36,374 bases of DNA, from IMG/VR virus record IMGVR_UViG_2531839477_000014; one strand, given 5' to 3'. The translations under genes and the position numbers were made by a program. Of the stretch, positions 13,127 to 17,132 are shown one piece after another. The DNA comes from a virus. Lineage: Duplodnaviria; Heunggongvirae; Uroviricota; Caudoviricetes. Numbering within the stretch: the first letter of the stretch is position 1; the number at the start of each line of letters is the position of its first letter. The notes beneath the pieces are model-generated. The model was not told the DNA's origin, ran no database searches, and was given only the letters and a program-made list of their open reading frames with translations.

Positions 13127-13933
13127 GTGGAATCGAAAGTGTCATATTTTTACAGAAGCAAGAATATTTCAGGTGTTTCTATAAATGAAGATAGCTTGAT
13201 TAGCTTAAGCACGGCAATTGTCGAACGCTGCGTTAAAATGAATGAGCAAGCTCAAAAGGAAAGTAGGGAAGTTTGTGCTCAATGTGTTTTTTTTATTTTG
13301 TTCGATGGTAAGGGATATAAAGTTGATTCTATCGGTGAGCTTGTGAAATACTTTAGACAGGCCACTAGGATTGATCAAATAATTTTTACTATTGAAACTT
13401 ATCAAAGTCGACAGTCTAACAGGATGAATGGATCTTGGATGGAGCTACGAATTGATGAGAGGAATTCAAATAGCAGCACAATGATTGTAGCATCGGAAGA
13501 TAATGAGTGGGTTGACTCGTTATGGATTACGATTCAGGATTTACTTAACAAGTGCAAAAATAAATTTAGATTTTTTAGAACAGCTTGGACTATGTTAAGT
13601 ATCCAGATTTCAGGTGTGACAGTTGGCTTTTTGCTTAGCTTATGGACAGCCTCAAAACTGGCGCCAAAACTATCAATCGATGGTGCATTTGCTTTATCAT
13701 TTATTTGTATCTTTATTTTGTTTTCGAACTTATGGAGCTTTGCTATTCCATTAATAATTAAGCTTATCGACTTTTTGTTTCCTAGTGTTAAGTTTGTTAT
13801 TAATGGTAAAAATTACTTTCACTGGAGTGTCCAGGCTATAATTGGAGCGATTGCCAGTGCGGTTATATTATATTTTATTAGCTCCATGTTGCTTTTTGCA
13901 TTAGAAATGTTAAATAGCATCATTAAGAAATAG
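13127..13933 (+). CDS. hypothetical membrane protein: ~150-aa N-terminal soluble domain + three predicted C-terminal TM helices (start may be GTG 13139)
   Basis: Long ORF in an AT-rich segment; hydrophobic stretches TAWTMLSIQISGVTVGFLLSLW, FALSFICIFILFSNLWSFAIPLII, AIIGAIASAVILYFISSMLLFAL; followed by an intrinsic terminator. Confidence 0.6.
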   Translation: MESKVSYFYRSKNISGVSINEDSLISLSTAIVERCVKMNEQAQKESREVCAQCVFFILFDGKGYKVDSIGELVKYFRQATRIDQIIFTIETYQSRQSNRMNGSWMELRIDERNSNSSTMIVASEDNEWVDSLWITIQDLLNKCKNKFRFFRTAWTMLSIQISGVTVGFLLSLWTASKLAPKLSIDGAFALSFICIFILFSNLWSFAIPLIIKLIDFLFPSVKFVINGKNYFHWSVQAIIGAIASAVILYFISSMLLFALEMLNSIIKK

Positions 13934-13966: not shown

Positions 13967-13990
13967 GGCTGCCAAATGGTGGCCTTTTTT
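13967..13990 (+). terminator. intrinsic terminator after the membrane-protein moron gene
   Basis: GGCTGCCAAATGGTGGCC hairpin (with G-U pairs) followed by TTTTTT; shares the GGCTGCCAA arm with the palindrome at 12944-12961. Confidence 0.5.
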
Positions 13991-14041
13991 ATTCCTCTCA
14001 TTTCTATTTCTGAGAGGACTCACTGCAATAAGAGGTGGCTA

Positions 14042-14428
14042 ATGTCCGATCCGATTTCCGGCACAGGGTTAGCTGGTGGAGCCCTAACGGGCGCTAGTAT
14101 TTATGGACTGCTGACCGGAACTGATTACGGCGTTGTATTTGGCGCATTTGCAGGGGCTGTATTCTATATAGCAACAGCAGCAGATCTGAGTGCATCGCGT
14201 CGACTGGCATATTTTATCGTGTCATATATTGCTGGGATCCTTTGCTCTGGGTTGGTTGGCTCCAAGCTGGCAAACTTGACCGGATACAGTGATAAACCTC
14301 TGGATGCTATTGGTGCCGTAATCGTCTCTGCTTTAGCCGTTAAAATCCTGACGTTCCTGAATAATCAGGATATCGGCTCGCTGGTGGCGCTCATAACGCG
14401 CCGGGGAGGTTCAGGTGGAGCTAAATGA
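14042..14428 (+). CDS. holin-like membrane protein (128 aa)
   Basis: ATG 14042 with GAGGTGG Shine-Dalgarno; Gly/Ala-rich hydrophobic helices; first gene of the lysis cassette. Confidence 0.55.
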   Translation: MSDPISGTGLAGGALTGASIYGLLTGTDYGVVFGAFAGAVFYIATAADLSASRRLAYFIVSYIAGILCSGLVGSKLANLTGYSDKPLDAIGAVIVSALAVKILTFLNNQDIGSLVALITRRGGSGGAK

Positions 14429-14696
14429 CCCGACAGCAACTATTAATGCGCTGTTATGTGCTTGTGTTGTTATTACTCTGATGTTTTATCGTCGTGGTGA
14501 TTCGCGGCATCGTCCTTGGGTTTCACGTTTAGCCTGGCTGATTACTGTTACATACAGTGCTGTTCCGTTGGCCTATCTCTGTGGGATTTATCCTCACTCC
14601 TCATGGCTCATTATCGTGGCGAATACTATTTTTCTTTCCGTGCTGGTGGCCGTCAGAGGCAACGTTGCACGTTTGGTTGATCATCTGAGGCACTAA
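14415..14696 (+). CDS. second small lysis-cassette membrane protein (holin or antiholin-like, 93 aa)
   Basis: GTG start after GGGGAGGT; three hydrophobic segments; stop overlaps endolysin start (TAATG). Confidence 0.5.
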   Translation: MELNDPTATINALLCACVVITLMFYRRGDSRHRPWVSRLAWLITVTYSAVPLAYLCGIYPHSSWLIIVANTIFLSVLVAVRGNVARLVDHLRH

Positions 14697-15310
14697 TGAA
14701 CCAACAATTATTTCAAAAGGCGGCTGGTATTAGTGCCGGGCTGGCTGCGCGCTGGTTTCCGCACATTGATGCGGCGATGAAGGAATTCGGCATTACAGTA
14801 CCCGCGGATCAGGCAATGTTTATCGCTCAGGTAGGCCATGAGTCGATGGGGTTTAGCGCCGTAGTTGAAAATTTTAACTACACACCATCTGCGCTGGTGG
14901 CGACGTTCGGAAAGAGGATCACACAGCAGCAGGCTGATGCCCTTGGCAGAACATCCGGACATGCAGCTCGTCAGGATGCTATTGCCAATCTGGTGTATAG
15001 CAACCGACTGGGTAACAAAGCCCCCGGTGATGGCTGGAAATATCGTGGTAGAGGATTAATTCAAATCACTGGCCTCCATAATTATCGCATCTGTGGTGCG
15101 GCGCTGAAGTTAGATCTGGTGACTTCACCTGAACAACTGGAACAGGAGCTACAGGCGGCGCGCTCAGCTGCATGGTTCTACACCTCTAAAGGCTGCATGA
15201 TCTACGGTGCCGATATTAACCGTGTTACGCGCATCATTAACGGCGGTCTGAACGGTATTGAGGATCGTAAGGTCCGATACAACAAGGCGCGGGCGGCGCT
15301 GCTGGTATGA
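14696..15310 (+). CDS. endolysin, glycoside hydrolase family 19 (chitinase-like) type
   Basis: Fold-typical segments FIAQVGHESMGF and GRGLIQITGLHNY; positioned between holins and spanins. Confidence 0.8.
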   Translation: MNQQLFQKAAGISAGLAARWFPHIDAAMKEFGITVPADQAMFIAQVGHESMGFSAVVENFNYTPSALVATFGKRITQQQADALGRTSGHAARQDAIANLVYSNRLGNKAPGDGWKYRGRGLIQITGLHNYRICGAALKLDLVTSPEQLEQELQAARSAAWFYTSKGCMIYGADINRVTRIINGGLNGIEDRKVRYNKARAALLV

Positions 15311-15699
15311 AGATGAGTTATTGGGCGCTCATTTTAACGTTTATTGCTTGTGTTGCTGGTGGTCTTGTCTGGTCAGCGAATCACTATCATGGAAAGTTTC
15401 TGGAGGAGCAGAAGCGTGCTGACGCTGCGGAACAGAGAGCTGATTCTACTGAGGCTATCACCGCGAATGTTCTGCGTACTATGGCAATAACGAACATCAT
15501 TCAGGAGGCGAATCAACATGCAAAACAGCAGATCGCACTGGAGTCACAGAGAACCCAGGAATATATCAAAGTGGCTGTTGCGAGTGATGATTGCGCTTCA
15601 CGTCCTGTGCCTGCTACCGCTGCTGACCGGTTGCGGAAGTACGCGGACAGTTTACGTGAACATTCCGGCGGCACCACTGCCAGCCAGCCTGACTTCTGA
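15307..15699 (+). CDS. Rz-like inner-membrane spanin (i-spanin)
   Basis: N-terminal TM helix (YWALILTFIACVAGGLVW) followed by a charged helical periplasmic domain; ATGA overlap with endolysin stop. Confidence 0.7.
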   Translation: MKMSYWALILTFIACVAGGLVWSANHYHGKFLEEQKRADAAEQRADSTEAITANVLRTMAITNIIQEANQHAKQQIALESQRTQEYIKVAVASDDCASRPVPATAADRLRKYADSLREHSGGTTASQPDF

Positions 15700-15865
15700 A
15701 ACACCGATTCCAATTATACCCAGTTCACTGACATATGGTGCTAGTCTGGAGTTGAATGTGGCTCTGTTGTCAGCGTTAGGACAATGTAATTTTGATAAAA
15801 CCGGAATCAGAAATATTGAATCACGGCGCGCTATTTTGCATTCAAAGTATAAATATCCAGAGTGA
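15587..15865 (+). CDS. Rz1-like outer-membrane lipoprotein spanin (o-spanin), alternate frame overlapping Rz
   Basis: Lipobox LLTGC in MIALHVLCLLPLLTGCGS; Pro-rich mature region; begins inside Rz in another frame and extends past the Rz stop. Confidence 0.6.
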   Translation: MIALHVLCLLPLLTGCGSTRTVYVNIPAAPLPASLTSETPIPIIPSSLTYGASLELNVALLSALGQCNFDKTGIRNIESRRAILHSKYKYPE

Positions 15866-16198
15866 TGTTATTTATTATAAAGATATGATGCATAAAGTTT
15901 AGGTGCTCCAGCTTCTATAGTGTAATGTAAAAGCTTACATAAAGTATGTCATCACATAGAATATGTATCGTGATTAATTATTAGCCCAACCTTTTGGGCT
16001 AGTATGAGAGAGGAAGTTAATACAAATCGTTTGTTGATGATTAAAAATGTGCATAGCAGAGTTAGTTATCAGTTGGTTCATTACGTATCATTTTTGTGCG
16101 GATTATCGATGGTACAACTGGTAGGGCATCTAATCTTTAGATAGTGCCTGTGGTGCTTAGTTACGATAAAATAACCTTTTCATTAAGTGGAGGTTATT

Positions 16199-16654
16199 AT
16201 GTGGCATACATTACTTAACTGGCATTCGGGAACAGAGTGGTCTGCTGTATCGGCTTTAGGTTCAGTTGTATCGGCTTTAGGTTCAATTTTAACTGTTATA
16301 TTAGGTTTTTGGGCAATGAATGTTTGGCGGCGACAGGAGGCTCTGAAGGCCAAAATGGCTCTGAAAATGGCAGTGGCTGATTATTCAAATGCATTATCAC
16401 AGCTACCTTTATCTCTTAGTCGTAATGTTCGTATTGAAAAAAGAGCCGAGCTACGAGAGTTAAGCCATAAATTAAATGCTATTAATAATGCTTTTTTGAT
16501 ATGCGAGCATATGTTGGAAAAATACCCAAGTGTAAACAGCGGTTGTCGTTCTTTATCTGTTGCCCACAAAGAATATATTAGAATGAGAGATAATAGCATT
16601 CAGGCGAAATGTATTTGTCATAATATTCTTTCAGAACCGTTTGTATTCAAATGA
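16199..16654 (+). CDS. hypothetical membrane-anchored protein (151 aa), AT-rich moron gene
   Basis: ATG 16199 with GTGGAGG Shine-Dalgarno; N-terminal TM helix (SAVSALGSVVSALGSILTVILGFWAMNVW) then helical soluble domain; preceded by ~330 bp AT-rich non-coding DNA. Confidence 0.6.
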   Translation: MWHTLLNWHSGTEWSAVSALGSVVSALGSILTVILGFWAMNVWRRQEALKAKMALKMAVADYSNALSQLPLSLSRNVRIEKRAELRELSHKLNAINNAFLICEHMLEKYPSVNSGCRSLSVAHKEYIRMRDNSIQAKCICHNILSEPFVFK

Positions 16655-16781
16655 AAATTAACGATTGGTATTTATTTGCCGTCTGTTCATTGGATTGAAA
16701 AGTCTATTTAACAAACCGTGTTAAAGCGGTTTTTGATTGCAGTTATGGTTAGATATTTAACGAAAACTACAGGGATAATAG

Positions 16782-17132
16782 ATGCCTCCACGAACCCCAA
16801 AAGCCTGCCGCGTTCGCGGCTGCCGCCATACCACGACTGACCCGTCAGGCTATTGCGAAAGCCACAAAAGCAAAGGCTGGAAGCAATACAAGCCAGGCCA
16901 GTCCCGACACCAGCGCGGTTATGGTTCGAAATGGGATGTTATCCGGGGGCGTGTACTGAAGCGTGACAAAGGCCTGTGTCAGTTGTGTTTGCGTGCCGGT
17001 GTGGTGCGCGAGGCGAAAACCGTTGACCACATCATCCCTAAAGCGCATGGCGGCACTGATGCCGACAGCAATCTGCAGAGCCTGTGCTGGCCGTGTCATA
17101 AGGCGAAGACGGCCCGTGAACGGTTGAAGTAA
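16782..17132 (+). CDS. HNH endonuclease (packaging-associated)
   Basis: HNH zinc-finger pattern: CxxxGC...C...HK...C, DHIIPKAHGGTD...NLQSLCWPCHKAK; immediately upstream of terminase genes. Confidence 0.85.
   Translation: MPPRTPKACRVRGCRHTTTDPSGYCESHKSKGWKQYKPGQSRHQRGYGSKWDVIRGRVLKRDKGLCQLCLRAGVVREAKTVDHIIPKAHGGTDADSNLQSLCWPCHKAKTARERLK

Follow-up and report, generated by a model that had tools for sequence, protein, structure and literature searches.

The DNA analysed in this study, referred to below as the window, is a stretch of 36,374 nucleotides (nt) from IMG/VR record IMGVR_UViG_2531839477_000014. Based on gene order and family matches, the window is a prophage of the SfV/SfI phage type in Escherichia coli, and a matching prophage, 99.8% identical over window positions 15500..17100, sits at tRNA-Thr beside proA in E. 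coli CFIAFB20190172. Its genes run from an integrase and early genes through a Q antiterminator, two holin-family genes, a GH19 endolysin and the spanins Rz/Rz1 to a gene for a 151-residue protein, which is the subject of this study, and then to an HNH gene, followed by genes for a P27-type small terminase, the large terminase, HK97-type head proteins and a Mu-type contractile tail. The 151-residue protein is encoded at 16199..16654 (ATG at 16199, stop at 16654), is listed in RefSeq as a hypothetical protein (WP_032300356.1) and is predicted from its family alignment and an AlphaFold2 model to be a single-pass inner-membrane protein of phrog_6169. Upstream are the last genes of the lysis cassette, Rz (15307..15699), which has a weak Pfam DUF2570 match, and the overlapping o-spanin gene Rz1/LysC (15518..15865, annotated as lysC in RefSeq). 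A non-coding spacer of 333 bp (15866..16198; 33.0% GC) separates Rz1 from the gene and an AT-rich spacer of 127 bp (16655..16781; 31.5% GC) follows it, after which the packaging module opens with the HNH endonuclease gene (16782..17132; Pfam HNH 4.2e-16, also annotated as such in RefSeq). All of these features are on the plus strand, and the coordinates given for them in an earlier sequence-only reading of the window (Rz1 end, open reading frame (ORF), AT-rich spacers on both sides and start of HNH) were all confirmed.

Comparison with phage SfV showed that the gene lies in extra DNA. Similarity to SfV in blastn ended at 15819 and restarted at 16769, leaving ~950 bp (15820..16768) that are additional in the window and have a GC content of 35.2%, in comparison with 49.4% in the lysis cassette and 55.8% from HNH to TerL. 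Judged against SfV, and as a correction to the sequence-only reading, the insert runs from ~15820, a position still within the 3' end of Rz1, to ~16768; in SfV itself the site is empty, with 27 bp separating Rz1 from the HNH gene. The junction is also empty in the sister E. coli prophage H39, and in other sister prophages (L046, L047, L048, L049 and L008) it holds unrelated cargo in place of the 151-residue gene. The alternative cargo comprised a GrlR-family regulator (in one sister prophage), two antisense hypothetical genes of 189 and 111 residues, a 113-residue antisense gene and an unrelated 169-residue protein that starts MERFIKSIES. Phage SfI has a 125-residue protein at this position, and Salmonella phage 118970_sal3 has a distant member of the family, of 184 residues, at the identical junction. 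Among 5426 complete E. coli genomes, 1188 had one or both flanks and only 27 had most of the query including the insert. Together, these comparisons indicate that the Rz1-to-HNH junction is a cargo hot spot, and the cassette at 15820..16768 is very probably a self-contained cargo unit within this junction of an SfV-like prophage.

The evidence also indicates that 16199..16654 is a real gene under purifying selection, based on its RefSeq annotation, on its relatives (22 close ones and more distant ones at the level of 69 clusters) and on a median pairwise ratio of non-synonymous to synonymous substitution rates (dN/dS) of 0.16 (pairs with dS above 1). The 22 close relatives are ~145 residues long and come from Escherichia, Salmonella, Enterobacter and Hafnia; 20 of them, when aligned, had 30 invariant columns, and in every relative examined the frame was intact and the length conserved. 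The window allele, whose ORF has a GC content of 37.5%, carries a perfect 21-bp tandem duplication (16246..16285, plus strand; 1.9 copies in Tandem Repeats Finder), which is in frame and puts seven extra residues (VSALGSV) into the predicted membrane helix relative to all the 144-147-residue relatives. Three E. coli genomes and two IMG/VR contigs were the only places in which this duplicated 151-residue allele was seen, and the seven additional residues could alter the length or the packing of the helix.

The 69 clusters were all that a hidden Markov model (HMM) search of 1.84 billion representative proteins returned; nearly all were of 137-195 residues, the exceptions being shorter fragments and one 966-residue repetitive protein. 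Only two cultured phages, Enterobacter phage CobraSix and Salmonella phage 118970_sal3, had a family member, and a plasmid search gave a single weak match. The family was restricted to phages and prophages, and the named hosts are Enterobacterales. The sequence-only reading had recognised no family for this protein, which agrees with our searches: in PHROGs the sole match was to phrog_6169, of unknown function, and the profile, PDB and fold searches found no characterised relative. Pfam gave no match at E <= 0.1 and NCBIfam was likewise empty, the family profile matched nothing among PDB sequences below E = 0.2, and Foldseek found no significant match among viral and PDB structures. The top viral fold match was BFVD P51700 of Haemophilus phage HP1 (Foldseek probability 0.96, E = 0.12, template modelling score 0.45), an uncharacterised protein whose ORF lies between int and cI in the lysogeny region of that phage, and this match was too weak to use. 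Homology to HK97 gp15/YebO was rejected (hhalign probability 0.2%), and no papers were found under the protein accession or the PHROG number. On these searches, the protein family appears to be an uncharacterised orphan, with no detectable relative beyond phrog_6169.

The relatives occupy a similar place in other phage backbones. In at least 14 of these the gene lies right after the last lysis gene, ahead of the packaging module and on the late strand, and this placement between lysis and packaging holds down to ~20% identity with the window protein (P0062, P0057 and P0079). The gene was found joined to at least five types of lysis cassette (holin_8 with holin_3_7, GH19 and Rz; holin_2_1 with lysozyme and DUF2514; holin_3_1 with GH108 and a small lipoprotein; an SfV-type S/R/Rz set; a lysozyme of the signal-anchor-release (SAR) type with Rz; and a muramidase set) and to at least four types of packaging module (HNH with P27 terminase, lambda Nu1/GpA, ParB/TAGT with Terminase_2, and a P22-portal type). 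There were four exceptions in location. In CobraSix the gene is between what is putatively the large terminase gene and the head-module gene that comes next, in L057 it is 3' of a Mu-F-like head gene, in L051, a borderline relative, it is within the tail module, and in L059 it is antisense to both flanking modules. No neighbouring small ORF was common to different backbones, which argues that the unit consists of a single gene. In all 31 loci examined the gene was richer in AT than its surroundings, with a GC fraction of 0.37-0.44 as opposed to 0.46-0.57 in the flanks.

The AlphaFold2 model, built from a 20-sequence alignment (predicted local distance difference test score (pLDDT) 79, predicted template modelling score (pTM) 0.64), comprises a long helix at residues 12-67, of which the membrane segment is the first part, and further helices to residue 145, packed as a four-helix bundle. 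The N-terminal transmembrane helix and helical soluble domain that had been proposed from the sequence are thus both predicted. The membrane helix (residues ~12-42; 16232..16324, plus strand) is rich in Gly, Ala, Ser and Thr, and the best 19-residue window had, across the family, a mean Kyte-Doolittle value of 1.95 and 52% of these small residues. Small residues recur at every fourth position of the helix, a pattern that suggests helix-helix packing. Lys and Arg together averaged 0.15 in the 15 residues N-terminal of the hydrophobic segment and 4.36 in the 15 residues C-terminal of it, with the C-terminal count higher in 47 of 47 members. Under the positive-inside rule, these counts predict that the N-terminus (~11 residues) is outside and that the ~100-residue four-helix bundle is cytoplasmic. 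A predicted cytoplasmic location of the soluble domain, opposite to the topology of an i-spanin, is a point that the sequence-only reading did not consider. The conserved motifs of the family are W-[RK]-x-Q-E-x-L-K-A-K directly beyond the membrane and, at the C-terminus, F-V-F-K; cysteines are not invariant.

Between backbones, the DNA shared was limited to the coding sequence and the ~85 nt before it. Comparison of the family contexts identified a -10-like hexamer, TAAAAT (16167..16172, plus strand), 32 nt before the ATG. A hexamer matching TATAAT in at least five of six positions and starting at -31 to -41 (mostly 32 nt before the gene) was present in 15 of 18 family contexts, in 1 of 51 control genes (the other genes of the same prophage, which were also the controls for the pairing analysis below) and in 3.9 +/- 1.7 of the 18 contexts when shuffled. 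The hexamers have the form TAnAAT (TAAAAT, TACAAT or TAGAAT), in which only the third position varies, apart from GATAAT in one locus; the third position is among the least conserved of sigma-70 -10 elements.

Directly after the hexamer is a leader hairpin (16171..16197, plus strand). The sequence-only reading had credited the gene with a strong ribosome-binding site, and this stands insofar as GGAGG (16189..16193) is present 5 nt 5' of the ATG; the site, however, lies within the hairpin, in which the Shine-Dalgarno (SD) sequence GGAGGTT (16189..16195) is paired with AACCTTT (16173..16179) at an RNAfold energy of -11.1 kcal/mol (z = -2.44). The type form of the hairpin in the family is AACCTCCTT-N5-AAGGAGGTT, and distant members maintain the same pairing with other sequences: CTCACT/AGTGAG in phage 118970_sal3, ATCCTTT/AAAGGAT in L036 and TCACC/GGTGA in L040. 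For pairing of the SD with bases upstream of it, the computed probability was 0.97 in the window, with a family median of ~0.85, as against a median of 0.43 in the 51 controls, three of which exceeded 0.8. When leaders were trimmed to the predicted transcription start, the mean SD pairing fell from 0.83 to 0.54 and was lower in 13 of 15 contexts; for the window leader it fell from 0.97 to 0.71. The antisense relative in L059 has both the TAAAAT at -32 and the SD hairpin. As a separate observation, the SD in the leader of HK97 gene 15 (L055:1159-1209), the first moron to be described, can pair with an upstream UUUCCUU (-10.7 kcal/mol), with z = -0.7, that is, no better than shuffles, which is only a hint that SD-hiding leaders might be common in morons.

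Of 19 contexts, 10 had a strong intrinsic terminator (-9.8 to -17 kcal/mol) no more than 120 nt past the stop codon. In the window, a weak terminator-like hairpin, AAACCGT-GTTAAA-GCGGTTT followed by TT (16713..16734, plus strand; -5.4 kcal/mol), is at the corresponding end of the gene and was not listed by a generic scan. Further upstream, comparison with other backbones identified a block of ~38 bp, GGYATTAC-N4-GGCATTCACTGAGTGCCTGTGATAAT, of which the window has a degenerate copy (16110..16155, plus strand). Nine backbones have the block in intact form, 58-67 nt upstream of the gene, even at 19-35% protein identity (loci L003/L004/L005/L032, L025, L030, L031, L040-42, L053 and L056; for example L031:5925-5962, L056:3922-3958 and L053:1042-1078), and a second copy in L053 (L053:1780-1815) precedes a ParB-like gene. 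It contains two direct GGCATTnAC repeats ~12 bp apart and an extended -10-like TGTGATAAT, and it looks like a regulator-bound promoter and may be a regulator site or an upstream promoter. We treated the block as a DNA element because, when considered as an upstream hairpin, the GGCATTCACTGAGTGCC block was no more stably folded than shuffles (z = -0.5 and -1.2).

Morons were defined by Juhala and Hendrix as additions relative to related genomes that have a deviant GC content, a promoter and a terminator of their own and that are expressed from the repressed prophage (PMC3594210), and a precedent among them is HK97 gp15, an inner-membrane exclusion protein (PMC3594210). The first two properties were observed here directly, as the extra ~950 bp relative to SfV, with the empty site in H39, and as the low GC content of the insert and of all 31 loci. 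For the window itself, a promoter and a terminator are putative, supported by the comparison with relatives. The independent acquisition proposed in the sequence-only reading is well founded, given the empty site in SfV, the unrelated cargo in sister prophages, the AT-richness in every backbone and the many pairings with lysis and packaging modules. The cassette resembles the morons HK97 gene 15 and lambda bor in being extra DNA of deviant GC content with a single gene, promoter-like and terminator-like signals and a position in or near the late genes, and the junction of Rz with the packaging genes is also the site of bor in lambda (Rz-cos). Like HK97 gp15, the product is predicted to be a small inner-membrane protein; it differs from gp15 in being 2.5 times larger, in having a folded cytoplasmic bundle and in lacking any sequence relation. 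Bor, unlike the protein studied here, is a lipoprotein encoded on the opposite strand.

It is somewhat more probable that the cassette is transcribed independently of the late operon than that it depends on it, because terminators lie directly before the terminase genes in relatives and because the L059 gene, which runs antisense to the modules on either side, must have transcription of its own. Expression in the lysogen, which the sequence-only reading called probable, is plausible. We propose that the cassette would be transcribed alone in the lysogen, immediately after DNA entry or both, and that the hairpin would hold translation low, chiefly on late read-through transcripts with the whole 5' arm. 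The hexamer borders directly on the hairpin's 5' arm, or in L059 is located within the loop, and transcription starting ~7 nt beyond it would therefore omit most or all of the anti-SD arm, while transcripts from the late promoter would carry this arm complete. The protein might then act on the inner membrane's cytoplasmic side, where it could oligomerise or bind a partner through the small-residue face of its helix and its bundle, and the outcome would be that DNA entry of other phages is blocked or that their infection is aborted. Exclusion of, or abortive infection by, other phages, which the sequence-only reading suggested as the function, is only a guess and a doubtful one, but still the likeliest of the biological roles considered. 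The full combination, a moron with its own transcription and a hairpin-throttled exclusion or abortive-infection protein, is the best explanation we can offer, held tentatively and at somewhat less than even confidence.

The proposed control is analogous, in regulation only, to that of IS10. Fold-back inhibition in IS10/Tn10 guards translation of the transposase against read-through transcripts from outside the element. In the window, as in IS10, the complement of the ribosome-binding site is at or before the gene's own predicted transcription start, such that only outside transcripts would carry the full hairpin. The comparison is qualified by the window start being only predicted and by the modest computed gain in SD accessibility (0.83 to 0.54). 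The hypothetical fold-back mechanism would be void if the upstream TGTGATAAT is a real promoter, as the cassette's own mRNA would then also have the hairpin. In its most specific version, the cassette would be a lysogeny-only or first-entry unit residing inside a late operon, its own transcripts translated and the late read-through folded and silent, with the protein representing a new exclusion or abortive-infection family; we regard this version as unlikely. Such IS10-like insulation has not yet been described for phage morons, and of all features of the locus its conserved leader is the most original.

Several observations weigh against the explanation of the cassette as an independently transcribed, hairpin-throttled exclusion moron. 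The predicted promoter has no recognisable -35 element, and in a generic scan of 15600..17000 for promoters and terminators the promoter-site counts were at chance level. The upstream block of the window is interrupted and mutated, with TGTGATAAT reading TGTGGTGCT, and the window terminator is weak compared with those of relatives. Covariation in the hairpin was not significant (66 of 500 shuffles reached the observed score, and the SD side hardly varies), and the gain in accessibility from the trimmed leader is modest. The family contexts are related by descent, so that the enrichment statistics overstate their independence. No family among the 5027 defence-protein models of PADLOC-DB 2.0 matched at E <= 1. 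Finally, most backbones have the gene directly behind the lysis genes and in the orientation of the late operon, an arrangement that would also suit a role in late functions or lysis.

Such a role would be that of an accessory lysis protein made at a low level from the late, hairpin-throttled transcript, which tunes holin triggering or endolysin release from the membrane's cytoplasmic side, in the manner of the Mu gp25 releasin or of LambdaSo Lcc6. Additional membrane proteins needed in lysis have precedents (PMC9239132; bioRxiv 10.1101/2024.01.23.576932), and releasins have been described by an N-terminal membrane helix with the N-terminus outside and the C-terminus inside, and by a gene no more than five genes downstream of the endolysin (PMC9239132). 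The 151-residue protein has this predicted topology (positive-inside in 47 of 47 sequences) and its gene is the third after the GH19 endolysin. The resemblance to Mu gp25 extends to the single-pass layout with a helical cytoplasmic domain and to a gene on the late strand, a few genes after the endolysin and spanin genes and before the terminase genes. The strand and position directly after the lysis cassette in at least 14 backbones, including relatives of ~20% identity, and a membrane helix whose small residues resemble those of helices packing against holins, are also in accord with a lysis function. On the other hand, Mu has no holin and needs gp25, whereas the window prophage has two holin-family genes, a GH19 endolysin without an obvious SAR domain, and Rz/Rz1, and its close relatives do without the 151-residue gene. 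The gene is dispensable, in that it is missing from many sister prophages and from SfV, a described phage whose holin, endolysin and Rz/Rz1 are annotated. It occurs with at least five unrelated holin/endolysin sets, SAR-type as well as soluble, and four relatives, including an antisense one, have no lysis gene next to them. Terminators directly downstream would be useless to a gene of an antiterminated operon. The absence of the gene from SfV and its pairing with both SAR-type and soluble endolysins also make a requirement for SAR endolysin release indirectly unlikely. Homology to Mu gp25 was rejected, with an hhalign probability of 3.6% against the family profile and no DUF2730 (PF10805) match in Pfam. 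Overall, we consider an accessory lysis role to be improbable.

Two further lysis identities were considered and rejected. No holin family was matched, and two holin-family genes are already present at 13976..14696. An i-spanin of the Rz type shares with the protein an N-terminal membrane helix, a helical domain, some conserved cysteines and a position at the end of the lysis cassette, but the predicted topology is reversed, there is no embedded lipobox ORF, lipoprotein partner or conserved neighbour, a full Rz/Rz1 pair is already upstream and Pfam gave no spanin match.

The protein might instead be a lysogenic-conversion factor without a role in defence, whose tethered bundle binds a host protein (in division, envelope stress, transport or signalling) and changes host physiology or fitness. 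Bor, the classical cargo at the equivalent lambda site, is a host-fitness gene, a GrlR-family regulator occupies the same site in a sister prophage, and four-helix bundles are generic protein-binding modules. A review of morons also lists several functions other than defence (PMC3594210). Against this, nothing was specific for such a role and no similarity to any host-interaction domain was found, and a family that is confined to phages and prophages and very divergent at a fixed site is more typical of genes in phage-phage conflict. We judge a conversion factor to be about as improbable as an accessory lysis protein.

It is highly unlikely that the gene is a membrane toxin or addiction gene whose ribosome site is kept closed as in type I toxin mRNAs. 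A conserved hairpin that buries a very strong SD and a membrane helix rich in small residues are what such a gene would have, but at 145-185 residues, with a large folded soluble domain, the proteins are far from the ~30-60 residues of type I toxins. Neither a conserved antisense promoter nor a small RNA was found, and there was no Rfam match; the only antisense promoter-like site (16225..16196) arises from the ATTATG start context and has not been preserved in relatives. The idea of a spurious ORF, or of one in decay within AT-rich junk DNA, to which the low GC content, lack of a known domain and internal tandem duplication might have pointed, is effectively refuted by the dN/dS value, the invariant columns, the conserved length, the intact frame and the in-frame duplication.

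Other features of the window and of related prophages were as follows. The 333-bp spacer, which has no conserved ORF, is confined to the E. coli lineage; it was present only beside the 151-residue gene, in 28 of 5426 E. coli genomes, and was unshared with relatives in other backbones except for its last ~85 nt. A 46-residue ORF within it (16004..16144) was rejected, as its frame is not kept in L002 and the changes are mostly non-synonymous, and an Rfam scan of 15700..16900 gave no credible match. In E. coli L3Cip3 (L002:6230-9192), a related prophage is cut off just past the small terminase gene by IS26 copies, and this defective remnant keeps the cargo gene and the lysis cassette. A second AT-rich gene in the window (13127..13933; 34.3% GC), between the Q antiterminator and the holins, encodes a 268-residue protein with several C-terminal membrane helices that matches phrog_30208, of unknown function, and for which Pfam, PADLOC and NCBIfam gave nothing; this is presumably the first moron that the sequence-only reading implied when it called the present cassette the second.

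Prophages with distant family members also have known defence cargo. At the site between Q and the holin genes, L036 and L038 (L036:3025-4186 and L038:874-1638) have either a KwaA-like (Kiwa) gene together with a partner or one for Abi_alpha, and hence the two kinds of gene co-reside in the same prophages. In backbones with a lambda-type terminase (L025:6540-6575, L030:6545-6580 and L036:6590-6625) a lambda-like cosN, ACGGGGCGGCG[AC/TG]CTCGC, was found ~100-130 nt past the stop codon, which makes the gene the last at the right end of the packaged chromosome in these three. In lambda, the polarity of packaging is such that the right end, on the cosN side, is taken as the DNA end that enters the cell first.

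The kind of element described here, a moron at the junction of Rz with the packaging genes, was already known, and it is the protein family that is uncharacterised. New functions in phage defence and host fitness come in large part from the cargo genes of temperate phages, most of which are still annotated as hypothetical. The 151-residue gene is a good experimental candidate among them, as a single gene under purifying selection that is confined to phages and prophages and recurs, in many unrelated backbones, at a hot spot with conserved control signals. If the protein were to prove a modulator of lysis, it would stand alongside Mu gp25 and LambdaSo Lcc6 in a fourth class of lysis component. 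If it is true that the hairpin silences late read-through, this would explain how a lysogeny gene can live in a massively transcribed lytic operon, an idea that would then be testable in other morons.

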